IMG/VR virus record: IMGVR_UViG_3300027736_000026
Location: 1-64,000 of that record
Direction: 5' to 3' (one strand)
DNA from: a virus
DNA: 64,000 nt
Under the pieces are notes generated by a model, which made no database searches, was not told the origin of the DNA, and saw only the letters and a list, made by a program, of their open reading frames with translations. Shown piece by piece: positions 5,324-60,839 of the stretch (its first letter is position 1; each line of letters begins with the position of its first letter). A program made the position numbers and the translations under genes.

Positions 5324-6130
5324 ATGTTAATAACAAAAACATTACCAATTTTAATTGTAGGTGGAACTGTAAATTATTATAGATCCAAAGGAGTTGTTTG
5401 CAACGTGGGCGACAAAATAAATTTGCCTGTAGAAATGTTAAAGAAAAATAGCGCTTCTAGAATTCAATATCAATGTGATAAATGTGGAGTGATAAAAGAA
5501 ACTCCTTATTCTGCTTTTAATAGATCGAATGATTGTTATTGTCATAAATGTAAATTAGGAATTTCAGGAGAAGAGAGAGTCGATAAATCAATTATCGGTC
5601 AAAGATTTAATAGATTAATCGTTTTAGAAAAATCTTACAGAAGAAATGATAGATGGTATTGGCTGTGTCAATGTGATTGCGGCAATAAACACAACGTTAT
5701 TTCTAAAGATTTAAAAAATGGAAACGTAGGATCATGTAAATGTTTGCAAAGAGAAAGAAAAATTGAAGGTGTTAGAAGATCATCGAAAGAAAGAGTTGGT
5801 CGGAAACATCATGCTTGGAATCACAATTTAACAGAAGAAGAAAGAAAATTAAGAAAAAATCAAAAATTTATCCTTAAAGGACTCTCTAGGTCTTGTTTCG
5901 AAAGAGATAGATTCCAATGTGTTATTTGCGATTCTAATAAAAATATACATGCTCATCATTTAAATTCATGGAAACATTTTTCAGGCGATAGATTTGAAGT
6001 CAATAATTTAATAACATTATGCAATCCTTGTCATAAGCAGTATCATAAACTAGTCAAACTAAAAGACGCAACCAAGGAAAATTTTAATATTTATCTTAAC
6101 AATATAAAGGAACAAAATGCTTCAGTATAG
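5324..6130 (+). CDS. HNH homing endonuclease with Zn-ribbon motifs
   Basis: C-terminal CVIC...HAHHLNSW...NLITLCNPCHKQYH. N-terminal CDKC, CHKC, WLCQCDCG and SCKC motifs. Lys/Arg rich. Confidence 0.85.
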   Translation: MLITKTLPILIVGGTVNYYRSKGVVCNVGDKINLPVEMLKKNSASRIQYQCDKCGVIKETPYSAFNRSNDCYCHKCKLGISGEERVDKSIIGQRFNRLIVLEKSYRRNDRWYWLCQCDCGNKHNVISKDLKNGNVGSCKCLQRERKIEGVRRSSKERVGRKHHAWNHNLTEEERKLRKNQKFILKGLSRSCFERDRFQCVICDSNKNIHAHHLNSWKHFSGDRFEVNNLITLCNPCHKQYHKLVKLKDATKENFNIYLNNIKEQNASV

Positions 6131-14890: not shown

Positions 14891-15109
14891 ATGGCAATAG
14901 ATATTAAGCTAAAAGAATATGTCCTATTTAAAAATAGGCGACAAGTCGTAAATTTATATAAAAACTTCTTAATCTTACTTGAAGATTTAAAGGAAGATGG
15001 TTATAATATTAATGATGAAAAGTACCAACGTCTAAGAAAGAAAATACTAGACAGCGGCAACGATAGCATCAGAAATTTTGAAGAAGATCTAAATAATATA
15101 AATTTATAA
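14891..15109 (+). CDS. Hypothetical protein
   Basis: 72-aa ORF with an AAAGGT SD-like site, coupled to the next gene by TAATG. Confidence 0.65.
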   Translation: MAIDIKLKEYVLFKNRRQVVNLYKNFLILLEDLKEDGYNINDEKYQRLRKKILDSGNDSIRNFEEDLNNINL

Positions 15110-15849
15110 TGAAGACTACATACGAATTTGCAATTAATAAAGAAGGGCTTGTGAAAGAAACAGAAGAGTCGGTAAACGAAGAAGGACAAAAGGTAACTAT
15201 TACCAAAGATGTTGTATCTCAAGTTCCTCATAAGTACTTTATTAAGAAACCCACAAGAGTTTTATTTGATGAGGCTGAATTATTTTATGGAGTTAGACTT
15301 TCTGAAGGCGTTAAGGCTGGCCTCCTTACTCGATCTTTGTTAAATAAAAGATACGTTGATGATGGCGGCATTTTAGGGGATAAAGCTAAAGGTGCCGAAG
15401 CAGATGCTTATAAAGACCTGTATAATGCTCAAAACGAAATTCAAAGGTTAGACGTTCTAGAAGAAAAAGATCGTCCAGATTATTTTGAAACCAAGAAAAA
15501 AGAATTGCAAGACAAGATTTCTGTTATTAAGAGTTCTTTGACCGAATTGGAGATGCAAAAAGAATCCCTGTTTGATAATACCGCAGAGACAAGGGCTCGT
15601 AATAAAGTAATAACTTGGTGGATATTATTTTTGTCATACTATGAGAAAAACGGGGAAAAACAACCATTTTTTGGCGAAGGAAATTACGAAACCCGAATGA
15701 ACAAGTATGACGAAATTTTTGAATCAGAAGATCCTCATATGATAAAAGTAGCTAATGCTTTTATTTATTTTATTAGCTTCTGGTATGTTGGAAGAGCGGC
15801 ATCAAAGGAAGACTTTGATTTATTAAAAACGGATCAACAAATTTTTTAA
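15109..15849 (+). CDS. Putative tail assembly chaperone
   Basis: Charged, coiled-coil-like protein between the tube and TMP genes. Function inferred from position. Confidence 0.5.
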   Translation: MKTTYEFAINKEGLVKETEESVNEEGQKVTITKDVVSQVPHKYFIKKPTRVLFDEAELFYGVRLSEGVKAGLLTRSLLNKRYVDDGGILGDKAKGAEADAYKDLYNAQNEIQRLDVLEEKDRPDYFETKKKELQDKISVIKSSLTELEMQKESLFDNTAETRARNKVITWWILFLSYYEKNGEKQPFFGEGNYETRMNKYDEIFESEDPHMIKVANAFIYFISFWYVGRAASKEDFDLLKTDQQIF

Positions 15850-15902: not shown

Positions 15903-16919
15903 ATGGATCTAGAAGCTTTTAATAAAAATTTAAAATCTCTTTATTGGGAAATAGTAAAGGGCTCATCTTCTTTTCTATGCAACAATAATCAGTATTATAT
16001 AAAGCACATGTCTCCAAAAGATGCAGGAGAGATCGAAGTGCGCGAAAACCACTATTACGAAAAAGCTAGATCACAAGGCATACCCACAAATGAAGAAAAG
16101 ATAAAAGAACTTATTAAAGAAAAAATCTATGACGAAAAAGACGATCAGAAAATAATAAACAATAGATTAACCCTTGCTAATTTAAATAAGACTAGACGCA
16201 AGCTCTATTTAACTAGAGACCTTGATAACATTGACAAACAAATAAAAGAAATTAATGAAGAGACAAGTCTGCTAGAGACTAAGAAAAATGATTTGTTAGA
16301 AAATACTTGCGAAACATACACTGGCAAACGGATGAATGAGTTTTACATTTATTATTCGGTTTACTCTGACGAAAATTGCCAAAATCACGCTTTTACATTA
16401 GAAGAATTTGAAGAACTAGATCAAAATGAGTTATTTAGATTAGTTAGTTCTTATTCTAAGTCTGCTCATAAATTTAATAATCATAACGTAAAAAGAATTG
16501 GAGTTAGCGGATTTTTCCTTAATTATTTTTATTTATGTGATGACAATGCTTATTTCTTCTATGGCAAACCTATTTGCAATTTAACATTTTATCAGGTCGA
16601 GCTATTTGGTTATGCAAGGTACTTTAAAGATTTAATGGGCAAGTCTACAGTTAAGCACCCTGATGAATATAATGATAATGTAGACAAGATTATAGATTGG
16701 TATGAGTCTAGTAGCAATCTTGAAAAATTACACGAAGATAAGAACATGACTAACGGTAAAGAGACTGCTGTCCAAGCCGTTTCTGTCATGGGAGCCACAA
16801 AGGAAGACCTAAAGAAATTAAAACAAGACAACACCGGAAGCGTTTCTTTGGAAGATGCGGCGAAGAAAAAAGGTGGCTCACTAAGCTTTGAAGATTTAAT
16901 GAAGTTGCACGGTGTTTAA
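15903..16919 (+). CDS. Putative second tail assembly chaperone
   Basis: Charged helical protein immediately upstream of the TMP. Function inferred from position. Confidence 0.5.
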   Translation: MDLEAFNKNLKSLYWEIVKGSSSFLCNNNQYYIKHMSPKDAGEIEVRENHYYEKARSQGIPTNEEKIKELIKEKIYDEKDDQKIINNRLTLANLNKTRRKLYLTRDLDNIDKQIKEINEETSLLETKKNDLLENTCETYTGKRMNEFYIYYSVYSDENCQNHAFTLEEFEELDQNELFRLVSSYSKSAHKFNNHNVKRIGVSGFFLNYFYLCDDNAYFFYGKPICNLTFYQVELFGYARYFKDLMGKSTVKHPDEYNDNVDKIIDWYESSSNLEKLHEDKNMTNGKETAVQAVSVMGATKEDLKKLKQDNTGSVSLEDAAKKKGGSLSFEDLMKLHGV

Positions 16920-16947: not shown

Positions 16948-19900
16948 ATGGCTACATCAGCAGGATCAATTCCAATTACGGCAACATTTAATGCAGCACA
17001 GCTTGAAAAAGATGTGTTATCAGCGTTAACTCGTATCCAAAGCAAAAGCACACTTAATTTAAATACGAGGAATTTCACCCAACCATTGGGTAAAATCACT
17101 GGCCTTGCTAATGAGTTTAACAAATCTTTAGAAGCTTCAAATGCCCGTGTAGTCGCATTCGGCGCTTCTGCTGGTGTTATTTTTGCAGTTCAGAAGTCTT
17201 TTTCAGCATTAGTTAATACTACGATTGATGTAGAAAAGTCTCTTACTGATATCAATATTGTATTAAATACGTCTTCTGCTGGAATTAAAAAATTTGGTGA
17301 TCAATTATTTGAAGTAGCAAAAAATACTGGCTCTTCATTTAAAGATGCCGCTGGTGCTGCGACAGAATTTTCAAGACAAGGTTTAGGACTAGAAGAGACA
17401 CTAAGGAGAACTAGAGATGCTCTAATCTTAACTCGTCTTTCTGGTCTTGATGTAGTTTCCAGTACAGAAGCTCTTACTTCTGCTGTTAACTCATTTACAC
17501 AAGAAGCTTTAACAACTACAGATGTTGTTAATAAACTCGCAGCAGTTGACGCTAAGTTTGCTGTTAGCTCCAGAGATTTGTCAGAAGCTATCCAACGTGT
17601 AGGATCTTCTGCCAGCGAAGCTGGAGTTAGTTTCGACGAATTGCTAGGTATTGTTACTTCTGTACAGCAAACTACTGCCCGTGGTGGTGCTGTAATTGGT
17701 AATGCCTTAAAAACAATTTTCACAAGAATAGAAAGACCTCAAGTCATTAGCGATTTGAAAGATTTTGGTATTACTGTCGCTGATATTTCTGGGAATACTT
17801 TGCCGACAATTAAAATAATTGAAAACTTAGCTCAGTCTTTCCAAAATTTGAATCCAATTGTTAAATCTCAGGTCGCTGAACTTGTCGGTGGTGTTTATCA
17901 AATTAACATTTTAAAAGCTGCTTTGGCAGATGTTTCTAAACAAAACTCTGCTTTCGCCGAAGCGACGAAAGCATCTTCTCAAGCGGTAGATGATGCCATA
18001 TTAAAGAACAATGCATTAAATCAAAGCTTATCTGCTTTATTCAACGCAACAACAGCTAATTTTGCTAAATTTGCAGTTTCTATTGGCGAAAGCAGTGTGG
18101 CTCCCGGAATTAGAAAAGTTTTAGACTATGTTAATTCTGCTTTAGAAAGCTATAATGAAAAAGACTCTGAAAGTATAGGAAAAAAAATAGCAACAGGTTT
18201 ATTAACAGGCATTACTAGTTTTGTCACTGGCCCCGGTTTAGCTTTAGGTGCGCTTGCTGTAGGTAAATTAATAGGTAATTTTGCTTCTTTCGCTGGAGAT
18301 GCTACTAAAAACATTTTAGGATTAAATAGTTTAGGAAGACAACAAGCAGTTCTCCAAGGAGAAATAAGCAACATCCTTTCTAATAACCCTCAATTAATTC
18401 AACAAATAATAGCTGGTAGCAAGAGCCGCCTACAAGTAGAAAAAGAAATAAAACAAACTCTTATTGAACAAGCAGCAGTTTCAGAAATGCTTAAAAAAAG
18501 TTCGGCATCTATCGCTTATGGCTATATTGCGTCAGGTCTTGGGGTTTCTACATCTGGTGGTATTACTGGAAAAAGAGGAAGTGCTGGAGGTTATATTCCC
18601 GCTCGACAACAAGCTTCCGAAATGGTAGGGGCAATGCAAGGGGGTTATACTCCCGGTAAAGTAATTGCTGCCCCCAAATCAATTGGCGGCGTAATGAATA
18701 CTGCCGAAAAAGTTAAATATATTCCCGGCTTTGCTCAACCTTATATACTACCTCCTCAAGGATCTCGCGCAGCACAATCTTTGGCTTCAAAGTCAATGGC
18801 AAAGAATGGCATTAATCCTTATATGGCTAGAGGATTCGTGCCTAATTTCGGTGGTCCTCCACCACTAGATAACGCTGGCCGCTATGGGGATAATGATTAC
18901 TGGTATTCTTCTAAATCAGGGAAGACTTCTTTGAGTGAAGTTAGATTAAAAGATAAAGATGGTAATCCTGATAAAGCTGCTTGGGGTGGTCCAGATAAAG
19001 GATTTTATAGAACAGATGGTCTACCATTTACTGCAACTGATTTAAATAAATTCGTTAGAGCAGGAGTTACTTATGGAGAAATTAGACGGTATCTGCCTGA
19101 TTCATTTGTACAAGATGATCCAAGAGCTAAGGCAGGGGTATCATTAGATCAATTAAAAAAAGAGTATAAACCCGGAGCAAAAATAGCTACAGTAGAAAGC
19201 GTAAAGGAAGAAGCAAAAAGAGTGTTTGAACCTTTTACTCCTCCTGCTTCTATGTTGATTTGGGATCTTGCAGGAAAAAATAGTGACCAAGATGAGATAG
19301 TTGATTTAGAGAAGCTCACTGAAGATAAAAAACAAGCAGGAAGATCATTTAGAATTAAAATTCGTGCTTTATCAGGGAGTCCTTTGAATGAAGAAAAGTT
19401 TGGTTTAATTGATAAAACTTCTAAGTTTGCCCGTGATATAACAAAAAAATTAGCTACTGGAATTCCCGGAGCAAAATCAGATTACTCTGATAAGGAAGTA
19501 GATAGTTATTTTAACAAAACTGGTAAAAATTACAATGTATTAGCTGGTACGATATTTGAAGCTGGAACTAACTTAGCAGCAAGCTACGTTAGAGATCAAG
19601 AGTTTAACAAAACTGCGTCAAAATTAAGTGCTATAGGTGGAGACTTTGACGTTAAGGGAGGAGCGAACCTTGCTAATGTCCAAAAATTCTTTCCCGGATT
19701 TACTGATTCTTATGGCGATTATAAGCTAAATAATTCTTATGACGCAATCAGAGAGTTTATTGATAAAGTTCGAAAAGAATTCCCTCTTGAAATAGGCAAC
19801 CATTTTGATAAACAAGAATCAAAAATAGCAGGAATAAAAACAAGTGCTAAAGGTTTTATTCCTAATTTTGCTCAAAAAGATTTTCAAACAGTAAATACCG

Positions 19901-22900
19901 CTAGACTAATGGGAATTAATTTAGCACAAATGGATATTAATCCCGAAACAGTATTTAGAGAGTCTTTGCAAAACGCTGTCGCTCACGGTCAATCAGGACA
20001 AGAAAAAGGAGTTTTCATTGGAACAAGCGGATATGGAAAACCAAATGAGTTTGCAATTAGTGATGTCGGCACTGGAATGTCCCCTGAAGATGTCTTTACT
20101 AAATTTTTACCATACGCTCAAACAGGAAACGAAGGAGGCAATAAAGGATTGTCTGGATTCGGAATGGGAAAAGCTTCTATTTTCATGGGTTCTAAGAAGT
20201 TCCTTCTTGATACTATAAAAGAAATAAATGGTAGAAAAATAAGAACAATTGTTTCTGGAACTCCAGAAGGATGGAATAATTTTATACAACAGGGCAAAAT
20301 AAGCTTAGATGATAATCTTTTTAATCAACCAAGAGGTGATTTAAATTTTGATGGATTAAAAATGTTTTGGAGAGAAGTTAATCCAGAAAAAAAGAATACT
20401 CCAGTAATGGGAACTACTTTTGCTGCTTCTCCTTCTAAAGAGGGCTATATATCTTATGGAAGTTATTTAGAGAATAGAGCAGGAAAAGTAGCAGAACTTC
20501 CATTTAAATTTACTACTGCTTCTTCTGGTTTATTGAAGCAAACAATTAATACTAGAAATGAAGATCCTAGCTATAGAAAATATTATTTTTCTAAATTTGA
20601 TCCTAGTAAATCTTCAGTACAAAGAACTTTAACGGCAGAAGGTGGAGAAGTAGATATATTGTTTGATCCTCAAGGAGATCCTCAAAAAACTTATGGATAC
20701 GCTCAGATTCCCATGCTGTCAGAGGGAATGAAGTATGCTAACTATAAAGTACAAGGAGTAGACTATATTCCTAAAAGTTTAATGTTTAATGTTAGGAGTA
20801 ATGTTGGTGCAGGTGATCCAAATTATCCTTGGAATACTGACAGAACTGAGTTAAGAGGGCCATTAGGCAAAATGGCAAAATCTGCCGTACAGGATTTAGC
20901 TGCACAATTAAAACGCGCTCAAGAAGATAGCGTTAGGAATGTCCCTTCTTATCAAATGGGTTCTGATCTTGAGCTTCTTGATGTTTCTTCTTCTTTGCCT
21001 AAAGGAACAATGGAGAGTATTGCTGGAAATCCTAAATTCCAAAATTTTGGTACTGCTTTAAAAAGCGTTTTTGAACAAACAATTGGACAGGCTTCTGAGA
21101 TTTTTGATCCAAGAATGGCTAATGCTTCATTTAGAGGTTTAGCTGTTGGAGCTAATTGGATGGGTTTAAATACTGCTTCATCAAAAGAAGTAGGTACGAA
21201 ATCTATAGTTGAACCATTTGCTCATGTAGAGACAGTTATAGATAGAATTAGAAAGATTTCTCAAGAAAAAGCTAAACAAGGAAAGAAAATAAAATCAGTT
21301 GGTAAATTTAGAGACATCTATTCTAGAGAAATATTAGATACTGTTTTTCATGAAGCCGCTCACCAAGTTAATAGAACAGAAGGAGAAGCTCATGCTAAAT
21401 CAATGGCAAGCGTTTGGGCAGCTAACGCAGAGCAAGTAGGCTCTTATTTAAAAGAAATTCAAGGTTCACTAACTCCCGAGTTGATGAACTTCATCATTTC
21501 TACTTATAAGCAAAACAAATCTATTATTGATGAGGGCAAATCTTCAAAGTTTAGAGATTTCGTATCTAATTATTCATCGGGTCATATACCTAATTTTGCA
21601 AAACCAAAAATAAAATCTTTTAAAACAGGAGAAGGCGAAAGAGTTTTAGGTCCTACGGCGATAGTCAATAAGCAAACTAGAGAAAAATTTATTGAAAAAG
21701 TTTTAGCGGGACATCAAGACAAGAGCTATATAAGATACTCCAAAAAAGATAACTCTATTGATGTAGATTTCGTTCGTTCTTCTAGAAGAGGGGATGGAGG
21801 AATGCTTTGGGATAGAGCGGGAAATATAGCTAAACAATTTGATATCCCATTAACTACAAGCGCATTTATACCTCAAATAGAAAATCTTGAAAAGTACGAC
21901 GCAGAAACTAATTCTTTCGGAGACGTTCTCTCTACAGGGTTCCCTCAATTAAAATGGAGCGAAAGAGGTAAAGCTAAAAACACTAAATTAAATGTTTATA
22001 ATAATCACTTACAATATCCAGTAGACTCAAAACGCACATTTTCAGAAGCGCAATCTATATTAAATAATATATATAAATATAACGCTCCTTCTTTAAAAGA
22101 TTCTATTTTGTCTGAATCCACTTATATACAAGATATTGTCAGTTATTTTGCAAAAGGGCATGTCCCTAATTTTAATGCAGTCCAAGAAGCAATAGGAAGA
22201 GAGATGTCCGCTGGATACTCCTCTTCTCAAGTTAAAGTAGGCCAAAGCAGCAAGCTAAAGACAAATTTCAATCCAATGGGATTAGGAGTTTATAACTCCA
22301 CAGAAGGTTCTCTTAATGGTGGAATTGGGTTAGCAGAAAAAGCTGGCATAAACCCCAAAACAAAAGGTATGTCTGCAAGGGGACATATTCCTAATTTTGC
22401 TGAATTTGGTGGGGTAGATTTTTCTATTGCAATTGGTGCCTTGGCTTTGTTTGCTACTTCTATAAAAAGTTCACTTGATTCATTTAAAAATTTAAATCAA
22501 GCATTAGAAGTTACAAAAAAAACTAACGCTGATGCTGCTAAGGCATATGAAGCAGAGCTAAAAAAAGGATCAGGAACGATAGCAAAAGAATTTGCTGCTA
22601 GAGAAAAACTAATACAGGATGAAATTAAAAAAACTTTTACAAACGTAAACAATAAATTAAAATTAACAGGTACTTTAACTGCTCCTTTAGTAATGGGTCC
22701 ACCTACTAGAGATAAATTTGGGATAATTACTCGTTCTCCTCAAGCCGCCTCTGCGGATGAAGTGGCAAGACTAGCAGAATTAAGAGAGCAACGAGCGGCA
22801 AATAGAAAAGAAAAATTAGCTCAACGAGAAGCTGCTAGAACAGGGAAAGCTGAAGCAGAAGCGGCACTTTCTTTAGCAAGCGCTAGTACATTTGATTCAA

Positions 22901-25900
22901 AAACGATGTTTAAATACGATTCAAAGTTTAGTAATTATGCTAAGGCAATTGGAACGCCAGTAGGTTTAGGGGTAAGCGCAGCATCAAATATTGGTGGTCA
23001 ATTTGTTTCTCCAGAAAACAAAACAGGCAAAGCAGCCTATTCTGGACTTGGTGATGTAGCTAGTTTTGCAGGTTTAGGAGCCCAATTTGGCGCTCCCGGA
23101 GCAATTATTGGTGCAGTCATTGGATTTGGATCGGCTATTTTAAAATTTAAAGATGCAAAAGCAGAAGAAGCTATTGATAAAATAAATAAAAGTTTAGACG
23201 AAACAAAACAAAAATCTTCTGATTTTTCTGGCGCTGCACAAGGTTATTCCTCTTCTTTACAAGGGTTGCAAGATGCTTTAAATGACCCTAAAACTAAACC
23301 AGAAGCTTTGTTAAAATTTCAAAATAATTTAACAGAATCTCTTAGCTCTATCCCAGAAGAATTTAGAGTAAAAGTACTAAAAGCGGGGACAGACATAACA
23401 AAAGTCACTGAAGCTATTGCTGGAGTAAATAAAGAGTTGGGAAATACTCAAAAAAATATTGAAAAACAATTACTTATTGCGAATATAATTAAATCAGAGT
23501 CAGGCCTGTTTGACAGTACTTCAGTATCGCCGCAAAATCAAAAAACATTAAATGCCTTATTTTCTTCTTCTTTGAATACAGAATCTATTACGAGTAATTT
23601 TAAAGGGCCAAACGCAACTGATGAAATGAACACTTTTTTTAATAATATAAAAAAACAAGCTATAGGAACGGCACCTATGTATATCTCAGATGAAGGCGGA
23701 GACACATACCTTGGAGAACTTCCTTCCTTAAATAGATCAGCTTCAGAAAGTGTAAAAAAAGAATTACAAGCCAAAGGAGGTCTTCCTGACATATTAGGGC
23801 CTGTTCTCGATTCTGCTTTTAAAACATTTGATGTTACTGCTGTAGAATCAATTATTGATGCATTAAAAAAACAAGGGTTAGCAATTATTGATAGCGCGAA
23901 AAGAGCGAAAATTCTTACTGACATTGTAGATGATAACACTAAAAGGACTATTGCATTTGCCGAAGCTCTAAAACAATTAAATGCAACATATAATGCCTCT
24001 AACCTTTTGATCTCTAATCAAATAGATATAGAGAAAAATCGCGCTAAGGCTATTAGAGAGATAAATAAAATACAAGCTGAAGGTGCGATTTCTGTTCAAA
24101 GGGCTAGAATTAAAGGTCTTTTAGATGCTTCTAGTCCTATAATTAGCGAAGGAGCCAAAAATAATATTCAATCTCAGTTAGATGTTAATGAAATAGACAC
24201 TAGGCAAAGTTCTAAAATACGAGAAGCTTCAAATAAGGTTCTTGATTCTTTTTCAGAGACTATAACTAAAAGAGCCGAAGAAGCTAGAGGCACTATTGTT
24301 TCGGTTATTGAAAATGCTAGAGATGACGCAGCAATAACAAAAGAAAGAAGTATATTTCAAGCGCAAATACAAAAATTAACTCCTCTTATTTCTGCATCAA
24401 TAAAAAGGGTTGCTGAAGGCGGAAATATTGGAGATATCCGAAATAGTTTAGAACAAGAAATTAGAGGGGCGAATAACGCTTTTAAGCCTGAGCAACAGGA
24501 AGTGCTAATTCAATCTCTTAATTTATCTTTCTCTAGTTTCCAAGATACTCTCGCAGAAATCAAAGCTCAAGGAGATGTAGATAGGGAAATTCAGCAAGCT
24601 CAAAGAGAATATCAAAAACAATCATTAGCTTTAAATCAAAGACTTTCTTTTGCTGGCGGTGCCCAAGCTTTGGGTTCAACTGGTAAAACTGGAGTCTCTG
24701 ATCTTTTTGATAGCCTTTCTGAATTAGTTTCAGAATTTAGACAGACTAATGCTATTGGAAACGCTGCTCAAAAGGGCTCTACTTCTTTTAAGTTTTTAGA
24801 TATCTTAACTAATCAATTACAGTTAAATAGAGCTACTGAGGCTCCTGTACCGTATAAAGATGCTCAAAGCTTTAATAAACAAGTTTCTTCTGACTTGAAT
24901 CCATTAGCAGCTACAGCAATTGCAGGAAGAGTTCAGCAAATAAGAGAGAGCTTAGATTTAGCTAAAAATGTTACTGAAATTCAAACAGGAAAATCAACAG
25001 AAGGTACTGCTTTGGGTAAAGCTTTTGATATGGCTAAAGAAGGCGCAGTGAAAACTGCTTTAGATCAAATAGCTTCTCAATTTAAGTTAGAAAACATGGG
25101 CAATTATCTTGACGTATTGCAGCAAGAGGCTAGATATTTAAATGAGTTGACAACTGATCAAAATGAAATTTTGGCGAGGACATTGCCAAAATCTTTGAAT
25201 GATAATTTCAATTCAGTAATAAGAACACAAGTAGGTGATAAATTAGGAGAATTAACTCGTTCTTTAAGTGAGGTTATTAATGAATTATCTACTAAAACTC
25301 AAAAAAATATACTTGATACTGAAATACGAAACCTTTTACCTGCTAATGTAGATCCGAAAGGAAGAGAAGAAATATTAAAACGCATAATAGGATCAGGAGA
25401 TTTAAAAGAAAAAGGAACCAAGGTTCCAGCAACATCGCTGGTCTATTCAAAAGAAAGCGAGGCTAAAATAAGGGCTTCAAGAGAAAAAGAAATCAAGCAA
25501 TTACAAGATTATTTTGAAAGCTTTAACACGCTAAAAGTAGTCGGAGACCAAAGCTTATACGGCAGGACTGCCAGCGAGATAATGGGAAATCCAAACGACA
25601 AAGCAGTAAGAGATGATTATGGCAATATTGAAGGTGGTGTCGTTTATAGGCCGGGTTATCGCGGAGCAAAAACCTTGGCGGATCGAACCGTTAGGGATAA
25701 AGCGATTGAATTGCAAGAAACTTTTGGAACAAGTGATGAATCTGTAAACAGAAATCAAAAAAGATTAAGTCAATTAATTGATTCACGCAAAAAACCAGCA
25801 TTAGGATTTGCTAACGAAAGAATGGATTTTACTGGGACATACAAAGAACTTGTTGATAATATAAATAGAGACTTTCAAAGCTCCATGACAGAACAAGATA

Positions 25901-27774
25901 TAATTTCTATTAAAGAAAAAGATGCAAAAAAAACGAAGATAGCCGAAGGGATCATGCGTCCGCGTACAAAAGAAAGCGAATTTGGACCTTTTGCTGGCGG
26001 ATATAAATTTCCATTAGACGAACCACTTAGTTATCAGTCTCGACTGCCTGATGACATGTTAAAAAGGACAAGAGAGAATATACAGAGGCTTGATGAGTTT
26101 TCAAATAGGAGATTCGATAACGAAGATCTCAATCAGATTAATATTAAAATAGAAGAACTATTAAACAAAAAACAAAAAAGCGCAGAAGAAGAAGAAAAGC
26201 TTTTAAAATTACAAATTGATATCAGAAACAAAACTTTGGAAATACAAAATAAAATTGCTGAAGACCAATTTAAATTGTATTATAAAAGCGCATTTGGCAA
26301 CAAGTTTTTCAAAGACGAAAGAGCGGCTTTTGCTAATGCCAGAATTGAAAGCAATGCTCGCGAAGGGAATGTAGATATAGGAGCTATCACTGAAAAAAAT
26401 ACTACTTACAACAAAGCAGATTTTGCCAGAGACACTGGTCAACTAATTGATACATTTCAAACTGATTTTAAGTCTGGTATTGGCAGCGCATTTGGCGAAG
26501 CTATCAAAGGCACTAAAACCCTTAAAGATGCATTTAGAGACATGTTCCAAGGTATCTTAAATAGAATGCTTGATAAGTCTTTAGAGATGGGAGTTGATGC
26601 TTTGTTTGCTTTTGGTAAAGCCGCTGCTGGACTTAAAAATGGTGGCGAAATAAAGAAATATAATTCTGGAGGTATGGTTACTGGCGGCTCTGGGATGAAA
26701 GATGATGTGCCCGCGATGATGAGCGGCGGCGAGTATGTCATTAAGAAATCTTCTGTTGATAAATATGGATCTGACTATTTAAGGAATCTAAATGGTGGAA
26801 TTATCCCAAGATATGCAACTGGAGGATTCTCTATTGGCCCATTACAAAATGAATTCTTGTACGATAACCCTGATCGCCCAACTTCTGGAGAATACGCTGT
26901 TGATTCTAGATTGTCAGCCGCAGCCCTAACTGACGACAGTAATCCTCAAAATAAGTTAAGACAAGATCGTTATGAAAAACTTGATCAGTACTTACAAGAC
27001 CGAGCGCAATATGAGGCAGACAAGAAGCAGAGCCTTAAAAACTATAAAAATCAAGTAAATAGTACCTTCTATTCGGGATTAGCTGCCGCTGGCATTCAAA
27101 TAGCTTCTGCTGGCCTCACAATGGGAGCAGAAAAATTAAGAACACCTAAAGCTACAGTCGGCAAACCTTATCAGGCGTACTCATCTTCTATGCCTAATTA
27201 TACTGGAAAAAAAGCAAGTGGTGGTTATATTGCTAAATTTGCTGGCGGCGGCTCTACAGGCCAAGACAATATCCCCGCTTTGTTAATGGGCGGCGAATAC
27301 GTCATGAATAAAAAAGCCGTCGATATGTACGGCAAAGATTTCATGGGTCAATTGAATTCTGGTTCTCTTCCTAAATATGCTAGAGGCGGGATGGTGGGAA
27401 CAAGTTATAGTGGTCAAAGCAATACAGACCAGTCTTCTAGCATGGATGAATTAGTAACTGCATTGAATACTTTAAATGATAACTTATCTAAGGATTCGGG
27501 AATAACTCAATCAGAATCAGGAAGGTCTTCTCTTGCTGGAGCTACCCAAGAGTCTGGTATGTCTGTAGTAAATAATATTTCAATTAACATGTCTCAAGGC
27601 GGCGAAGTTACCTCTGAAGCTAACTCCAGCACTCAAAAAGGCGCATCCAATTCCAAAACCGATCAGAACAGCATTCAAAACAATGGCAAACTTGCTGAGT
27701 TACTTAGAAGCAAAGTTGTTGAAGTATTAGTCGAACAAAAGAGACCCGGAGGATTACTTTACTCCAGTAGATAA
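16948..27774 (+). CDS. Tape measure protein (3608 aa) with embedded enzymatic cassettes
   Basis: N-terminal TP901-type TMP core (EFSRQG...LSEAIQRVGSSA...GAVIGNALKTIFTRI), Gly/Ala hydrophobic stretches, long coiled coils and two C-terminal D[DN][VI]PAxxxGGEYV motifs. Internal GHKL and HExxH motifs. Confidence 0.9.
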   Translation: MATSAGSIPITATFNAAQLEKDVLSALTRIQSKSTLNLNTRNFTQPLGKITGLANEFNKSLEASNARVVAFGASAGVIFAVQKSFSALVNTTIDVEKSLTDINIVLNTSSAGIKKFGDQLFEVAKNTGSSFKDAAGAATEFSRQGLGLEETLRRTRDALILTRLSGLDVVSSTEALTSAVNSFTQEALTTTDVVNKLAAVDAKFAVSSRDLSEAIQRVGSSASEAGVSFDELLGIVTSVQQTTARGGAVIGNALKTIFTRIERPQVISDLKDFGITVADISGNTLPTIKIIENLAQSFQNLNPIVKSQVAELVGGVYQINILKAALADVSKQNSAFAEATKASSQAVDDAILKNNALNQSLSALFNATTANFAKFAVSIGESSVAPGIRKVLDYVNSALESYNEKDSESIGKKIATGLLTGITSFVTGPGLALGALAVGKLIGNFASFAGDATKNILGLNSLGRQQAVLQGEISNILSNNPQLIQQIIAGSKSRLQVEKEIKQTLIEQAAVSEMLKKSSASIAYGYIASGLGVSTSGGITGKRGSAGGYIPARQQASEMVGAMQGGYTPGKVIAAPKSIGGVMNTAEKVKYIPGFAQPYILPPQGSRAAQSLASKSMAKNGINPYMARGFVPNFGGPPPLDNAGRYGDNDYWYSSKSGKTSLSEVRLKDKDGNPDKAAWGGPDKGFYRTDGLPFTATDLNKFVRAGVTYGEIRRYLPDSFVQDDPRAKAGVSLDQLKKEYKPGAKIATVESVKEEAKRVFEPFTPPASMLIWDLAGKNSDQDEIVDLEKLTEDKKQAGRSFRIKIRALSGSPLNEEKFGLIDKTSKFARDITKKLATGIPGAKSDYSDKEVDSYFNKTGKNYNVLAGTIFEAGTNLAASYVRDQEFNKTASKLSAIGGDFDVKGGANLANVQKFFPGFTDSYGDYKLNNSYDAIREFIDKVRKEFPLEIGNHFDKQESKIAGIKTSAKGFIPNFAQKDFQTVNTARLMGINLAQMDINPETVFRESLQNAVAHGQSGQEKGVFIGTSGYGKPNEFAISDVGTGMSPEDVFTKFLPYAQTGNEGGNKGLSGFGMGKASIFMGSKKFLLDTIKEINGRKIRTIVSGTPEGWNNFIQQGKISLDDNLFNQPRGDLNFDGLKMFWREVNPEKKNTPVMGTTFAASPSKEGYISYGSYLENRAGKVAELPFKFTTASSGLLKQTINTRNEDPSYRKYYFSKFDPSKSSVQRTLTAEGGEVDILFDPQGDPQKTYGYAQIPMLSEGMKYANYKVQGVDYIPKSLMFNVRSNVGAGDPNYPWNTDRTELRGPLGKMAKSAVQDLAAQLKRAQEDSVRNVPSYQMGSDLELLDVSSSLPKGTMESIAGNPKFQNFGTALKSVFEQTIGQASEIFDPRMANASFRGLAVGANWMGLNTASSKEVGTKSIVEPFAHVETVIDRIRKISQEKAKQGKKIKSVGKFRDIYSREILDTVFHEAAHQVNRTEGEAHAKSMASVWAANAEQVGSYLKEIQGSLTPELMNFIISTYKQNKSIIDEGKSSKFRDFVSNYSSGHIPNFAKPKIKSFKTGEGERVLGPTAIVNKQTREKFIEKVLAGHQDKSYIRYSKKDNSIDVDFVRSSRRGDGGMLWDRAGNIAKQFDIPLTTSAFIPQIENLEKYDAETNSFGDVLSTGFPQLKWSERGKAKNTKLNVYNNHLQYPVDSKRTFSEAQSILNNIYKYNAPSLKDSILSESTYIQDIVSYFAKGHVPNFNAVQEAIGREMSAGYSSSQVKVGQSSKLKTNFNPMGLGVYNSTEGSLNGGIGLAEKAGINPKTKGMSARGHIPNFAEFGGVDFSIAIGALALFATSIKSSLDSFKNLNQALEVTKKTNADAAKAYEAELKKGSGTIAKEFAAREKLIQDEIKKTFTNVNNKLKLTGTLTAPLVMGPPTRDKFGIITRSPQAASADEVARLAELREQRAANRKEKLAQREAARTGKAEAEAALSLASASTFDSKTMFKYDSKFSNYAKAIGTPVGLGVSAASNIGGQFVSPENKTGKAAYSGLGDVASFAGLGAQFGAPGAIIGAVIGFGSAILKFKDAKAEEAIDKINKSLDETKQKSSDFSGAAQGYSSSLQGLQDALNDPKTKPEALLKFQNNLTESLSSIPEEFRVKVLKAGTDITKVTEAIAGVNKELGNTQKNIEKQLLIANIIKSESGLFDSTSVSPQNQKTLNALFSSSLNTESITSNFKGPNATDEMNTFFNNIKKQAIGTAPMYISDEGGDTYLGELPSLNRSASESVKKELQAKGGLPDILGPVLDSAFKTFDVTAVESIIDALKKQGLAIIDSAKRAKILTDIVDDNTKRTIAFAEALKQLNATYNASNLLISNQIDIEKNRAKAIREINKIQAEGAISVQRARIKGLLDASSPIISEGAKNNIQSQLDVNEIDTRQSSKIREASNKVLDSFSETITKRAEEARGTIVSVIENARDDAAITKERSIFQAQIQKLTPLISASIKRVAEGGNIGDIRNSLEQEIRGANNAFKPEQQEVLIQSLNLSFSSFQDTLAEIKAQGDVDREIQQAQREYQKQSLALNQRLSFAGGAQALGSTGKTGVSDLFDSLSELVSEFRQTNAIGNAAQKGSTSFKFLDILTNQLQLNRATEAPVPYKDAQSFNKQVSSDLNPLAATAIAGRVQQIRESLDLAKNVTEIQTGKSTEGTALGKAFDMAKEGAVKTALDQIASQFKLENMGNYLDVLQQEARYLNELTTDQNEILARTLPKSLNDNFNSVIRTQVGDKLGELTRSLSEVINELSTKTQKNILDTEIRNLLPANVDPKGREEILKRIIGSGDLKEKGTKVPATSLVYSKESEAKIRASREKEIKQLQDYFESFNTLKVVGDQSLYGRTASEIMGNPNDKAVRDDYGNIEGGVVYRPGYRGAKTLADRTVRDKAIELQETFGTSDESVNRNQKRLSQLIDSRKKPALGFANERMDFTGTYKELVDNINRDFQSSMTEQDIISIKEKDAKKTKIAEGIMRPRTKESEFGPFAGGYKFPLDEPLSYQSRLPDDMLKRTRENIQRLDEFSNRRFDNEDLNQINIKIEELLNKKQKSAEEEEKLLKLQIDIRNKTLEIQNKIAEDQFKLYYKSAFGNKFFKDERAAFANARIESNAREGNVDIGAITEKNTTYNKADFARDTGQLIDTFQTDFKSGIGSAFGEAIKGTKTLKDAFRDMFQGILNRMLDKSLEMGVDALFAFGKAAAGLKNGGEIKKYNSGGMVTGGSGMKDDVPAMMSGGEYVIKKSSVDKYGSDYLRNLNGGIIPRYATGGFSIGPLQNEFLYDNPDRPTSGEYAVDSRLSAAALTDDSNPQNKLRQDRYEKLDQYLQDRAQYEADKKQSLKNYKNQVNSTFYSGLAAAGIQIASAGLTMGAEKLRTPKATVGKPYQAYSSSMPNYTGKKASGGYIAKFAGGGSTGQDNIPALLMGGEYVMNKKAVDMYGKDFMGQLNSGSLPKYARGGMVGTSYSGQSNTDQSSSMDELVTALNTLNDNLSKDSGITQSESGRSSLAGATQESGMSVVNNISINMSQGGEVTSEANSSTQKGASNSKTDQNSIQNNGKLAELLRSKVVEVLVEQKRPGGLLYSSR
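18580..22401 (+). repeat. Six dispersed peptide motifs xxG[FYH][IV]P(NF) within the TMP
   Basis: SAGGYIPAR 18580, MARGFVPNFG 18823, SAKGFIPNFA 19843, YSSGHIPNFA 21571, FAKGHVPNFN 22147, SARGHIPNFA 22372. Confidence 0.9.
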
Positions 27775-36616: not shown

Positions 36617-37348
36617 TTATATATTATAAATTTCGTTTTTAACGTCTTTAGCGGTTGACTTAACATCAAGTTCAACATTATTCATTGATATCTCAACTGT
36701 TTGAGAGCCTATCCTCATCCTCCCATATCCAACTGGCACAGGGCCACCTTCTCCAAGAATGTTAGAAGGGCCATCAAATAAGTAGCTAGGTTTACCGCCT
36801 CCGTTATCTATTTTCCTAAAATCATCAAATTTTGGAGGAGACATCATCAATAAAGTGACACCAGTTACGGCCAAGCCAATGCCTGCTCCAATTAACGCAG
36901 CAGAAAGAACAGTGGCAGCAGTTGATGATGCAGCAATGCCCAACATAGCGACTCCTCCTGCGGCTCCAATGCCTGATGCAATTAATAAAACACCAAGCAC
37001 TAAAGCTAAAACTCCTTTTGTTGTGCTATCGCCACCACCGCCAGCACCTTTGATAATTGGAACAATGTCTAAAGTTTCTAATTTTTCATTAATCATTACT
37101 AATTCAGAATTGACAATAGACTCTGGCATTTCTAGAGAAATATTTTCTGGATTTATTATTTCTCTTTTATTGACTAGTACTTTATATTCTACGCTTTTTT
37201 CTGCGGCTCCAATTAGATATTTTAACAATTTACCCTTAGACAATACTTGAATAGCTCGTAAGGCTTCCTTTATGGAAGTTACGTTTAAGCTCCAATTCTC
37301 TCTGCCTACCTGTTCTGCTATTTCACCGTGTAAAGTTATGTTAGTCAT
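36617..37348 (-). CDS. Tail assembly protein, lambda gpI-like
   Basis: ITLHGEIAEQVG...EALRAI (ubiquitin-like N-terminus), IVPIIKGAGGG, hydrophobic segment, SYLFDG...GGPVPVGYGRMRIGS. Confidence 0.9.
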   Translation of the reverse strand: MTNITLHGEIAEQVGRENWSLNVTSIKEALRAIQVLSKGKLLKYLIGAAEKSVEYKVLVNKREIINPENISLEMPESIVNSELVMINEKLETLDIVPIIKGAGGGGDSTTKGVLALVLGVLLIASGIGAAGGVAMLGIAASSTAATVLSAALIGAGIGLAVTGVTLLMMSPPKFDDFRKIDNGGGKPSYLFDGPSNILGEGGPVPVGYGRMRIGSQTVEISMNNVELDVKSTAKDVKNEIYNI

Positions 37349-38087
37349 AGAGGTTGTTTCTCATTATATAAATTACCCATTTTTTATATCTATTAGAAAG
37401 TCTTTCGGTAATAGAGATTCCGTCTCCCGGATGATGTAAGATCGTGTCTTTACCTAAATAAACCGCACAATGAATAGGAAAATTGAATTTCTCTGTTCTC
37501 ATTATTAGGACATCGTTTTTCTTTAAGTCGTAAACCTGCCTAAAATTATTATACTCAAAATATTTTTTTAAATAATTGTCTTTATTTTTTAAAGATTCTG
37601 CTTCATCAATGAATCTTTTGCTCGCCATTTCATTAAATTCTTCTTCAGAAACATTACTTTTAAGAGCTTCTAATTCTGGGCAAAGATGGATGTTTAAATC
37701 ATGGCAGTAATAATCTTTTACTAGCCACAAGCAATCAGCAAACCCCAAAAGGAAAGGCCTTCCTGTGTACTGAATTTTATAACTATTTGGATTATAGATG
37801 TAGAAAGATCCGCTTTGCTTATTGTAAATAATACAGGCTAAACCAAGCCTTTCCGAAACAATCTTGTCCGCTTCTGAAATAGCATCAAAATTAATATGAG
37901 AATGATAATATGCAGCAATGCCAGACTGACCATTCAAATCCATCATGAACTCAGTAGCAGAATTAATTAGATTTTCTTTTTTTTCAATCGCTAATCCGCC
38001 ATCTGTGCGTACTAAAAATCCACACACTTCATTATTGGAAGTATTAGCGTGTTCAATGATCTGATTTTTTATTTCTTCTGTTAACAT
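37341..38087 (-). CDS. Tail assembly protein, lambda gpK-like (JAB/MPN + NlpC/P60), copy 2
   Basis: EVCGFL, YHSH...SEAD, YTGRPFLLGFADC, HCAVYLG...ILHH. Confidence 0.88.
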   Translation of the reverse strand: MLTEEIKNQIIEHANTSNNEVCGFLVRTDGGLAIEKKENLINSATEFMMDLNGQSGIAAYYHSHINFDAISEADKIVSERLGLACIIYNKQSGSFYIYNPNSYKIQYTGRPFLLGFADCLWLVKDYYCHDLNIHLCPELEALKSNVSEEEFNEMASKRFIDEAESLKNKDNYLKKYFEYNNFRQVYDLKKNDVLIMRTEKFNFPIHCAVYLGKDTILHHPGDGISITERLSNRYKKWVIYIMRNNLYD

Positions 38088-38839
38088 AATTCCTTGCTCC
38101 TTGCGAAACAGTATATTCTTCTTTTTTCTGCGTCTGTTAGTTTTTCAATAATTGATTTTTTATTTCTTGGCTGGTGTAAAATATAATTTTGTCCAAGGTA
38201 AATACCAAAGTGAGAAGGGTAATTCTCTAAATATTTAAATACTATAATGTCATGTTTCTTAGCGTTTTCTATGCCTTCGACTTTAATGAAATTCTCTTTT
38301 TCGAAAAACTTGTCAAAATTTTGTGATTCACAAAACTCTGCTAATTTATTTTTTACAAACTCTGGATAGTCTTTATCCCAATCTGCTGTTCTTCCATAAT
38401 GGAAAATCTTAATGCCAAATTCTTCATTGTAATAGTTTTCTACTATTGATAAGCAGTCAGATACCCCAATCACAAAGTCTTTATCAATGTATTTATTGTA
38501 GTAATTTTCTGGAGAATATTCTTCAAAAGAATCCCTTTTCAGTATATAAACTATGTTTTTTATGTTAAGCTTGTAGCTTATCTGCTTATCTAACTCTGAA
38601 AAAGAATTATCTTGTATACAATGAGAGTGATAAATACCAACAATTTTGCCATTCATTGCTGCTTTTAAGTAGTCTAGCTGACATACAACAAATTCATTTT
38701 CTTTATCTTGAGCGATATTCCTACAAGCGAAAGCCTCTAGTGCGTTCTTTTTATTTAAAAGCAAAAGGCCGCAACATTCATCTGGGTTTTCCTTTAATGA
38801 ATGCGCTTTTATTTTAGCTTTTATCTCATCTGAAATCAT
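38081..38839 (-). CDS. Tail assembly protein, lambda gpK-like (JAB/MPN + NlpC/P60), copy 1
   Basis: PDECCGLL, YHSH...SELD, GVSDCLSIV, HFGIYLG...ILHQ. Confidence 0.88.
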   Translation of the reverse strand: MISDEIKAKIKAHSLKENPDECCGLLLLNKKNALEAFACRNIAQDKENEFVVCQLDYLKAAMNGKIVGIYHSHCIQDNSFSELDKQISYKLNIKNIVYILKRDSFEEYSPENYYNKYIDKDFVIGVSDCLSIVENYYNEEFGIKIFHYGRTADWDKDYPEFVKNKLAEFCESQNFDKFFEKENFIKVEGIENAKKHDIIVFKYLENYPSHFGIYLGQNYILHQPRNKKSIIEKLTDAEKRRIYCFARSKELC

Positions 38840-39963
38840 TACATCGCCCCTCTATTGTAATTAGATACTCCATAAAATCCTCCAAAAGGTAAAGGATTTT
38901 CTCCAAATCTAATTTTACATCCTTTAATGCTTTTAGAGCATTGATCTGCTAGCCAATATTGTCCATTAGGAGGAGGTGTATTAATTGGGACAAGTGATTT
39001 TGCGACGAAATAAAAATTTATATCTTTTTTAGTTATAAAAACTACTTTTCCTTTGACATACTCCGTTGATGATCCCCATTCGCTAGGAGCATTTGCTGCG
39101 ATAGTAAGATCGGAAAATAAAGCCATTTTTTGAATTACTTGATCATCTTCTGTGCCGCAAACTGGTGCTGATACTCCACTTGAATCGCTTTGATTTGATA
39201 TTGGGGTAGTTGTCCCGTGAATGTCTGTATTTAATCTATCTTTATATTCATACAAACATCCTTCTCCCCTGTATTGCCAAGGACAAATATAACTTAAAAC
39301 TCTCCTTTTGGGAAGCTTCACTCTATCTAAGTCTATTATGCTTGATAATTCAAACTGAATGCTATTTCGATTTTCAGAAGATTTTCTATCAAAGTAATAG
39401 ATGTCTCTAGGAAATTCGCAATTAGGATCAGGGTCAAATCCATCTGGTATGATTAATTTATCTGGAGATAGCGCAGAAGTGCCGTCGTTTTGATAAAAGT
39501 TGCTCCTGTCAAGAAACTTAGCGAATGTTCTAATTCTTGTGAACTTCGCACCAATCAAGTCGCCAAAATTAATAGTTCCCCTAAATAAAGAAAAGACATC
39601 AAGCATATCATCAGAAAAACTAATCTGCACTTTCGGTTTTGGGAACACACCTCTAGAAGCTATCTCAAATCCCTCAGTTGAAAGAGGTGCTGGTAAATAA
39701 GCATCGCCTTTCCAATAAATAATATTTCTGCCTAATTTAAGATTATTATGCAATCTAATAACGCTATAATTAAATATCCCGCTTTTTGTTCCGGGTAAAG
39801 TCAATTGAAAATTCCTTAGATTAATTACAAATTGAGAAGCATTTGTTACTCCAAGATTGGTTAAGTCAATTTCAAATAAAGAAATAATCGAAGAAGGTTC
39901 AAGAGAGAAAAATTCTTTATTTACTTTTAAAGATGCGTTTTTAATTTCTTGTTGAGTGGCCAT
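38839..39963 (-). CDS. Minor tail protein, lambda gpL-like
   Basis: LFEIDL, IYWKGDAY...EGFE, GAKFTRIRTFAKFLD, FELSS, and the four-Cys pattern CPWQYRGEGC...DQCSKSIKGCKIRFG...PFGGF. Confidence 0.92.
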   Translation of the reverse strand: MATQQEIKNASLKVNKEFFSLEPSSIISLFEIDLTNLGVTNASQFVINLRNFQLTLPGTKSGIFNYSVIRLHNNLKLGRNIIYWKGDAYLPAPLSTEGFEIASRGVFPKPKVQISFSDDMLDVFSLFRGTINFGDLIGAKFTRIRTFAKFLDRSNFYQNDGTSALSPDKLIIPDGFDPDPNCEFPRDIYYFDRKSSENRNSIQFELSSIIDLDRVKLPKRRVLSYICPWQYRGEGCLYEYKDRLNTDIHGTTTPISNQSDSSGVSAPVCGTEDDQVIQKMALFSDLTIAANAPSEWGSSTEYVKGKVVFITKKDINFYFVAKSLVPINTPPPNGQYWLADQCSKSIKGCKIRFGENPLPFGGFYGVSNYNRGAM

Positions 39964-39967
39964 AATC

Positions 39968-40522
39968 TTATGCTGGGACTTCTTCGAAGGTAGTTTTTAT
40001 AGAGAAATTATTAAAGAATGGATTAGATGATCCCCATCTTCTACATACAAATAATTTGGCATCTGTAGCCGCAACTGTATAAGGTGCAGATGGGTAATAA
40101 ATAAAAGCTGTCTTGGCTGACCTTGCGCTAAAGAAATGAAGGATAGCAGTACATTCATCTAAGGTTAACCCGTCAAAATTCAATTCAAAATTGAGAAGAT
40201 TAAAGTTAATTTGATCGCTTACTCTTTTTTCGTATCCATCTCCATATTTTATTACGCTAACTTTGGGTTCAAAATTAGCTTGGGTCTGATAAGACGGTCT
40301 CCAAATGAACAAAGGATAATCTTTTTTAATTACTGGGTGTTGAAAATAACCTCCCCAGTAAGCGTCCGAATTAGATATCACGCTAGAGTAAACTGGTGGA
40401 TTATTCGCGGGCACAGCGGCTTTAGCGTAATAATATCGATTATCTGTGTATACGATAATATCATGCTTATTGTATGCGACAGAATTACTCCATGAACTAA
40501 TATTAAAAATTGAGCTAGACAT
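39968..40522 (-). CDS. Minor tail protein, lambda gpM-like
   Basis: FIWRP...KYGDGYEKR...F...ILHFF...AFIY...FEEV. Confidence 0.85.
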   Translation of the reverse strand: MSSSIFNISSWSNSVAYNKHDIIVYTDNRYYYAKAAVPANNPPVYSSVISNSDAYWGGYFQHPVIKKDYPLFIWRPSYQTQANFEPKVSVIKYGDGYEKRVSDQINFNLLNFELNFDGLTLDECTAILHFFSARSAKTAFIYYPSAPYTVAATDAKLFVCRRWGSSNPFFNNFSIKTTFEEVPA

Positions 40523-40538
40523 ACCTTTTACCTTTTAC

Positions 40539-40576
40539 CAACTTATTATTACACTTTTTTGTGTAAATATTAAAAT
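40539..40576. promoter_or_regulatory. Back-to-back divergent GTGTAA motifs
   Basis: ttacac (40549-40554) tttttt gtgtaa (40561-40566) in the 57-bp gap between the divergent operons. Confidence 0.55.
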
Positions 40577-40579
40577 AAG

Positions 40580-49533: not shown

Positions 49534-49562
49534 ATACTATGCGGCAACCGGCGACTTGTCAA
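49534..49562 (-). promoter_or_regulatory. Sigma70-type promoter
   Basis: TTGACA (49562-49557), 17 bp, TAGTAT (49539-49534). The GTG start at 49527 is 7 nt downstream. Confidence 0.6.
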
Positions 49563-50709: not shown

Positions 50710-50710
50710 A

Positions 50711-60530: not shown

Positions 60531-60546
60531 TTAACTAAAAAAAGAG

Positions 60547-60831: not shown

Positions 60832-60839
60832 AGCTTATA

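Follow-up and report, generated by a model that had tools for sequence, protein, structure and literature searches.

A tape measure gene of an uncultured aquatic siphophage carries an array of exchangeable modules bordered by a conserved peptide

Organization of the Tape Measure Gene

The DNA analyzed here, called the window, is a stretch of 64,000 nucleotides (nt) of the IMG/VR virus record IMGVR_UViG_3300027736_000026 (positions 1 to 64,000), and the element under study is its tape measure protein (TMP) gene, in which a short peptide, called the delimiter, recurs at the borders of successive modules. The gene is a single open reading frame (ORF), P0001, of 3,608 amino acids (aa). Its N-terminal part contains a TP901-type domain (N-domain), matched by PF10145 at aa 122-310 (E 6e-28; 98.5 bits, cut-off 33.2) and by TIGR01760 (E 3e-35; 121.7 bits, cut-off 28.8), and both ends of the protein matched PHROG tape-measure families. 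By these profile matches P0001 is a TP901-type tape measure protein, and the ordinary TMP regions that an initial annotation of the window had placed on both sides of the repeated peptide were recovered. The features of the gene were as follows.

16948-27774, + strand: TMP gene P0001, single ORF, 3,608 aa
16948-18579, + strand: N-terminal TP901-type TMP domain, aa 1-544 (PF10145, TIGR01760, PHROG)
18580-18609, + strand: delimiter copy 1, degenerate, SAGGYIPARQ (pattern scan)
18610-18822, + strand: bracket module A, ~71 aa (BLAST cluster 2)
18823-18852, + strand: delimiter copy 2, MARGFVPNFG (pattern scan; alignments to many relatives end at q634-639)
18853-19842, + strand: cassette B, ~330 aa, alpha/beta in the AlphaFold2 (AF2) model, no matching fold
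19558-19725, + strand: invariant core of cassette B, aa 871-926 (F-E ... G-D-F-D ... D-x-K)
19843-19872, + strand: delimiter copy 3, SAKGFIPNFA (identity to L001 steps up)
19873-21570, + strand: cassette C, ~567 aa (aa 976-1542), predicted GHKL ATPase, middle region and HExxH zincin
19945-20223, + strand: GHKL (HATPase_c) region of cassette C, aa 1000-1092 (Pfam, near threshold)
21349-21363, + strand: HEAAH zincin motif of cassette C, aa 1468-1472 (alignment)
21571-21600, + strand: delimiter copy 4, YSSGHIPNFA (identity to L001 steps down)
21601-22146, + strand: cassette D, ~182 aa (BLAST cluster 3)
22147-22176, + strand: delimiter copy 5, FAKGHVPNFN (commonest alignment ends, q1734/1735)
22177-22371, + strand: bracket module E, ~65 aa (BLAST cluster 1)
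22372-22401, + strand: delimiter copy 6, SARGHIPNFA (alignment ends at q1817-1822)
22402-27774, + strand: C-terminal TMP part (phrog_3547 at aa 3098-3316; no delimiter copy)

The pattern G[FYH][IV]P[NA][FR] starts at aa 548, 629, 969, 1545, 1737 and 1812 of P0001 (nt 18589, 18832, 19852, 21580, 22156 and 22381). These are the six sites reported by the initial annotation, which had counted from three residues earlier, and the span of 1,270 aa between copies 1 and 6 is likewise as claimed. The three large segments between the copies, here cassettes B, C and D, had been described as unrelated to each other, and no BLAST cluster was common to them.

A Conserved Peptide at the Module Borders

Copy 1 (SAGGYIPARQ) lacks the N-F pair, and the remaining five copies match the strict form G[FYH][IV]PNF. 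From the composition of P0001, 2.3e-4 strict copies would be expected against the five observed, and at least one strict copy appeared in only 9 of 20,000 shuffles of the sequence. The strict motif was found in none of the other reading frames of the 64-kb window, and no delimiter copy was found in the C-terminal 1,790 aa of P0001. In distant relatives the canonical GFIPNF is present at the position of copy 1, around aa 540. When 374 distinct copies were compiled, the logo read [AS]-x-G-[FHY]-[IV]-P-N-F-[ANS] with nearly uninformative flanks; 98% of the copies retained the N and 91% the F, within the residue sets allowed by the search pattern. In the IMG/VR loci with the strict motif, it was confined to the TMP ORF in all 45 (flanks of up to 10 kb).

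The DNA behind the peptide was far more variable. The 181 distinct DNA copies made use of every codon for Gly and Pro (four each) and for Asn and Phe (two each), and the exact DNA common to the copies of the window was only CCT AAT TTT, about 9-11 nt. Since all synonymous codons are used while the peptide is kept, selection acts on the peptide and not on the DNA; as judged from these codon counts, the peptide itself is under purifying selection. In the AF2 model of cassette B, both motif-bearing ends had a predicted local distance difference test score (pLDDT) below 50 or of about 45, and on this one modelled fold the delimiter would sit in a flexible linker outside the fold.

In the distant TMPs L073, L074, L079 and L084 (at about aa 520-880) the B-like core GDFDV ... 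D-x-K was retained, and the junction peptides of L073-L084 were degenerate only (QIPRFN, GSLPNL, HVPNYA); such peptides may show the origin or the decay of the delimiter. TP901-family TMPs have the N-domain in common, and the Firmicutes N-domain relatives (L119-L128, on genome contigs) contained no delimiter copy.

Two repeated modules were also found in the C-terminal TMP part (26620-26889 and 27184-27453), with the pattern …DD[VI]PA..[MS]GGEYV…YG…LN.G..P.YA.GG. Both are bordered by G-x-I-x-x-[FY]-A-x-GG-like stretches that look like the delimiter. A derivation of the delimiter and of modules A and E from the C-terminal module was not supported: the hhalign probabilities were 0.8% and 0.4%, and only the short G-x-I-x-x-[FY]-A stretch was aligned.

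Exchange of Whole Modules Among Relatives

A search of a large protein collection with aa 540-1830 as the query returned 80 giant proteins of 1,997-5,251 aa, nearly all with PF10145; the five relatives without it resemble truncated gene calls. With a slightly looser pattern, the delimiter was present in 80 of the 80, in 2-21 copies each. As shown by BLASTP of P0001 against these relatives, the flanks are collinear (N-terminal domain identity ~37-89% among the matches listed) and homology breaks at the motifs. P0004, for example, aligns over q1-979 with no further match before q1523, P0003 over q1-1555 with the next match from q1734, and many relatives align only to q635 and then from q1734/1735. 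Within aa 560-1830, across 79 proteins, 166 of 206 ends of high-scoring segment pairs (HSPs) lie within 10 residues of a delimiter, as against 10.5% of positions; because the relatives share kinship, this count is not to be read as a probability. The inter-motif segments (n = 324; 9-977 aa, median 179) fell into 81 BLAST clusters, 53 of them singletons. The initial annotation had named variable inter-motif content between conserved flanks as a test of its reading, and such a pattern was supported by the 80 relatives, the 81 clusters and the HSP ends at the motifs. The smallest members of the family (~1,900-2,200 aa) consist of N-domain, motif, A, motif, one cassette, motif, E, motif and the C-terminal part.

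A recent event could be followed at the DNA level. In L001-L008, cassette C has 98% aa identity to that of the window, as compared with 48-50% for the adjacent cassette B and 81-83% for module E. When the window was aligned with L001 at the nucleotide level and identity was taken in 60-nt windows, it was 0.55-0.68 up to ~19840, rose to 0.95-1.00 from ~19866 to ~21575 and dropped to 0.35-0.47 from ~21605. These steps coincide with motif 3 (19852-19869) and motif 4 (21580-21597), so both exchange junctions lie on motif-coding DNA. By this comparison, cassette C was recently swapped. Taken at both the protein and the DNA level, the sequences show that modules are acquired, lost, duplicated and exchanged as whole units among related phages, with junctions at the delimiter. 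Exchange at this point may be favoured by microhomology, or it may be that only in-frame joints survive. The suggestion in the initial annotation that the motif is a recombination handle therefore stands in part: the junctions are on motif DNA, but the DNA is not conserved beyond the needs of the peptide.

One IMG/VR TMP ORF (L016:4613-22687), which exceeds 6,025 aa and has an open 3' end, contains 16 motif copies and cassettes of up to 1,370 aa. As regards natural splits of the gene at the motif, the gene of L114 lies in many frames, as in an error-prone assembly, and is uninformative either way. Against cultured phages, blastn of 18400-22600 gave no match, and tblastn of aa 540-1831 gave only a weak match in the GHKL region, to Arthrobacter phage Atuin (E 8e-4, 10% of the query).

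Predicted Contents of the Modules

Modules A and E, of ~70 aa each, bracket the array. The A family (BLAST cluster 2) comprises 49 copies in 38 of 81 proteins, directly after the N-domain, and the E family (BLAST cluster 1) comprises 64 copies in 58 of 81 proteins as the last module of the array. On hhalign comparison (probability 96.9%, E 1.6e-10, a score to which the shared terminal motifs add), A and E are paralogous.

Cassette C of the window matched HATPase_c with 23.7 bits, below the cut-off of 25. An exhaustive profile-free search with C gave 195 relatives at E ≤0.001, nearly all in proteins of 1,200-5,900 aa, and relatives of C exceeded the Pfam cut-off for HATPase_c_3 or HATPase_c (P0122, 57.7 bits; P0112, 40.9 bits). 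In the alignment of C relatives, the GHKL N-box was kept (E31 in 48 and N35 in 44 of 57 sequences, the remainder being mostly gaps), the H, E and H of HExxH were invariant in 57 of 57, and a conserved EGE or similar acidic stretch followed 6-9 residues past HExxH in most rows shown. Given the HATPase_c matches in relatives, the N-box and the invariant HExxH, cassette C is an enzyme-type module, predicted to combine a GHKL ATPase with a metallopeptidase of the zincin type. Profiles of the zincin and of the GHKL part matched 4 of 81 TMPs (6 of 81 in a crude HExxH scan), and the zincin acting in cis was rejected as a general processing protease because its module is present in just those 4.

A C-type module was also observed inside about 150 other giant proteins (P0082-P0230, 1,200-5,900 aa), nearly all without the delimiter: the strict form was present in 2 of 149. 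When repeated 5-mers were sought as an alternative delimiter, none was found in 29 of 30 such proteins, and the exception, P0083, is itself of the GFIPN type. In P0108 the C module is fused to an Acb1/2H phosphodiesterase (anti-CBASS-type) domain, P0084 has a weak GNAT match, and neither P0082 nor P0084 has a PF10145 match. The GHKL-zincin module may be widespread among virion proteins as an independent unit.

For cassette B, an alignment of 31 sequences from IMG/VR loci was used for AF2 modelling, which gave a mixed alpha/beta fold with a mean pLDDT of 80.2 and a predicted template modelling score of 0.66. The B profile matched 38 of 81 TMPs, once per protein, and residues E246, D274, D276, D299 and K301 (alignment numbering) were invariant in 31 of 31. 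The invariant F-E, G-D-F-D and D-x-K follow the order of a PD-(D/E)xK site; no fold or family match was obtained. The best Foldseek hits of the model had E 0.15 in the PDB and E 0.59 in BFVD, the best of 48,161 chains compared with VIA-align had a Z of 5.6, on long helices, and for B there was no Pfam match, a best PDB profile E of 1.8 and no usable match in the ESM Atlas.

The cassette D family (BLAST cluster 3) comprises 25 copies in 16 proteins and is a tandem triplicate in some relatives. D had no Pfam match at E up to 1; its best PDB profile hit had E 0.74 and its best Atlas hit scored 0.88, below the useful range, and neither was a GNAT. In a joint AF2 model of B-C-D (22 alignment rows; mean pLDDT 39.8), D had a pLDDT of 50-68. 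A Foldseek search with this poor model gave no match at E ≤0.001, the acetyltransferase rows being non-significant (E 1.2-1.3), and when B, C and D were each compared with the PDB as single sequences, the rows were absent or at chance level.

In the relatives, 42 cassettes were scanned one by one against Pfam, and HATPase_c_3 (2), HATPase_c (1), DUF7178 (1, E 1e-16), ART-PolyVal (1, E 1.8e-5) and an SprA-related family (1) were found. In addition, P0036 has a PcfJ-like match (E 2e-6) and P0076 has a GNAT in its precomputed Pfam list; scanning P0071, P0038 and P0045 over their full length brought up nothing further of note. The term "enzyme cargo" would hold for some cassettes, and most are without a family assignment. 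The initial annotation had described the three large segments as globular and unlike coiled coil, had called the array one of enzyme cargoes, and had pointed to polyvalent proteins, with their zincin, GNAT and nuclease domains, for comparison. Globularity is supported for B and not by the joint model; the enzyme assignment stands for C as a predicted GHKL/zincin module, but B matched no nuclease or known fold and D gave no GNAT signal; and polyvalent-type domains do occur in relatives (ART-PolyVal in 1 of 42 cassettes, PcfJ, GNAT), although most cassettes lack a Pfam family.

Genomic Context and Host

The phage is a large uncultured aquatic siphophage (contig of 119,674 bp) with a lambda-like tail tip. 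The tail genes around the TMP gene were as follows.

15109-15849 and 15903-16919: two ORFs directly upstream of the TMP gene, no family
37341-38839, - strand: two adjacent gpK-like genes, both NlpC/P60; only 38081-38839 with a Pfam JAB match
38839-39963, - strand: gpL-like tail tip gene
39968-40522, - strand: gpM-like tail tip gene
40580-41398: tube-like gene, the sole tube-like Pfam match, below the cut-off

The gpM-, gpL-, gpK- and tube-like genes in 37341-41398 place the TMP within a tail gene module, and a 2,442-aa ORF comes next after the gpK-like pair. The TMP gene (+) converges on the lambda-like tip genes (-), with the tube-like gene beyond, an unusual order for a siphophage tail. The two ORFs upstream of the TMP gene were syntenic in 37 and 38 of the 45 loci. 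In 12-13 distant motif-bearing loci both gpK paralogues of the window matched one place, so gpK seems to be a single gene within the flanks there, and its duplication appears, from this comparison, specific to the clade of the window.

A replication module occupies the right end of the window. It includes a split PolIII-alpha-type replicase at 53252-57203 (-), made up of a PHP ORF (56442-57203), an RNase_T-like exonuclease (55807-56445) and the core (53252-55840), and beside it, at 57213-62407, a PDDEXK nuclease, a Toprim primase, a DnaB helicase and a weak RecA-like ORF. At the left end, where the window has large ORFs, one ORF (5324-6130) encodes an HNH endonuclease. At 49537-52618 (-), a glycosyltransferase family 9 ORF adjoins a 635-aa ORF with weak Aspzincin_M35 and glycosyltransferase matches below the cut-offs.

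In a prophage/host search of genome contigs, one profile gave no match, and a second profile matched 31 loci, mostly in aquatic metagenome-assembled genomes (Flavobacteriales, Flavobacterium, Crocinitomicaceae and others). The contigs with relatives had a GC content of 0.32-0.47 and were most often labelled Flavobacteriales, which suggests Flavobacteriia of fresh or sea water as hosts, with the reservation that binning of phage contigs is unreliable.

Comparison With Known Systems

Polyvalent proteins, as presented in the account of Iyer et al. (2017; PMC5512222), are giant proteins of many domains, proposed to pass into the host together with the DNA; they show mosaic domain shuffling and carry domains such as ART and GNAT, and a zincin metallopeptidase was proposed to cut the protein into units. 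The presence of ART-PolyVal in the cassette of one relative is a likeness to them. Unlike the polyvalent proteins, the present array lies inside a tail ruler and has one conserved peptide at each junction, and a predicted zincin is found in just 4 of 81 members. The text of PMC5512222 contains no mention of "tape measure" and none of GHKL/HATPase.

Thermus phage P23-45 also has a giant TMP with an enzyme, the 5,002-aa gp96. According to the polymerase passages of PMC10770324, its N-terminal region is an active virion RNA polymerase that serves in the host as infection begins. Unlike the present protein, gp96 has one fixed N-terminal enzyme, and no repeated delimiter or cassette exchange is described in those passages. 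In phage T5, as given in the passages of Linares et al. (2023; PMC10038345) on the TMP pb2, this protein is a trimer in the tail lumen and is processed during tail morphogenesis, being cut after R1127 into pb2* and pb2C, between a hydrophobic stretch and the enzymatic domain; processing of lambda gpH is cited there as well. That is a single C-terminal cut that sets apart one muralytic domain, at a site unlike the delimiter peptide, and the same passages report no repeated motif and no variable array. No published description of a motif-fenced TMP array was found in full-text literature searches, whose coverage left out most subscription journals.

Possible Function of the Array

TMPs leave the tail at infection, so modules inserted in them would go along. 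In the mechanism proposed here, a changeable set of modules (in the window phage the GHKL-ATPase/zincin module with B and D) would be carried to the host envelope or cytoplasm before or with the DNA. A trans-acting protease, of phage or host origin, would free the modules at the delimiter peptide, and the processed TMP would then be a polyprotein comparable to the polyvalent proteins. Recombination in frame at this common peptide would allow the payload to be swapped without damage to the ruler. Weighing the whole analysis, we consider it an even question whether the TMP holds an exchangeable payload array that is delivered to the host and released by a protease at the peptide. It is doubtful that the delimiter would be a universal processing signal, at which a trans-acting protease cuts every copy and so releases a freely exchangeable set of host-takeover and anti-defence enzymes inside the host at DNA entry. 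If this were true, any folded module between two delimiter copies would become tail-delivered cargo.

Several results weigh against delivery with release. Only five Pfam families were found among the 42 cassettes of relatives, most of which had none, and B and D gave no recognised enzyme fold or family in Pfam, PDB or structure searches. A conserved candidate protease was not found, either in the zincin scan of 81 TMPs or in the neighbourhood of the motif-bearing loci, and the idea that the second gpK-like gene is a dedicated protease is weakened by the comparison of distant loci. Judging from known siphophage tails, three copies of ~1,270 aa of folded protein would probably fit poorly in the lumen of the tail tube. 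Moreover, the passages on the P23-45 polymerase carry no mention of cleavage, so that a payload need not be cut free (PMC10770324).

The fused, working polymerase of P23-45, for which those passages mention no cleavage, and the missing conserved protease would also suit a peptide that is a structural or assembly motif, which docks the junctions on a chaperone or on the tube wall, or holds three TMP chains in register, while the modules stay attached. The conserved paralogues A and E, with the motif on both sides, suggest such a structural unit, and the two conserved ORFs of no family upstream of the TMP gene (37 and 38 of 45 loci) occupy the usual position of chaperone genes. However, copies spaced by anything from 9 to 977 aa cannot be in register with a periodic tube, and the C-terminal 1,790 aa, which would also need the chaperone, are without the motif; a structural role is held here as a tentative possibility. 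It is unlikely that the modules are not injected at all and instead function inside the producing cell or during tail assembly, as intramolecular chaperones, spacers or aids to envelope penetration, or are removed before the tail is completed. The lack of an enzyme family in most cassettes, the presence of B-like modules in 38 of 81 TMPs, which is more core-like than accessory, and the presumably poor fit of folded modules in the tube lumen would be in keeping with this. Against it, the extreme turnover (81 clusters, 53 singletons) and the recent exchange are typical of conflict-driven payloads and not of structural parts, and ART-PolyVal, GHKL/zincin, PcfJ and the Acb1-linked relatives point, as predicted domains, to host-directed activities.

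A motif with no function in the protein, a mere footprint or handle of recombination carried along with each cassette, would agree with the junctions of the recent swap on motif DNA, and insertion at a shared motif automatically leaves one copy on each side. Yet the DNA is not conserved, every Gly and Pro codon being used among the 181 copies, and the peptide is kept (N 98%, F 91%) across TMPs whose N-domains are just ~40-50% identical, so that this explanation is very improbable.

Whatever its function, the array is real, widespread and highly modular, and it combines the features of enzyme-bearing TMPs and of polyvalent effectors with a conserved junction peptide. TMPs are usually viewed as rulers that bear no more than a single fixed enzymatic domain, and here the ruler contains a fast-evolving, shuffled payload region. 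If the modules are delivered, they would represent a large and so far unused source of phage early effectors, mostly without a known family, and the order peptide-module-peptide would be a simple rule by which effectors could be found in metagenomes. Such a rule would make the delivery of proteins by siphophages alongside the DNA directly testable, and it suggests a route by which proteins might be loaded into phage tails.

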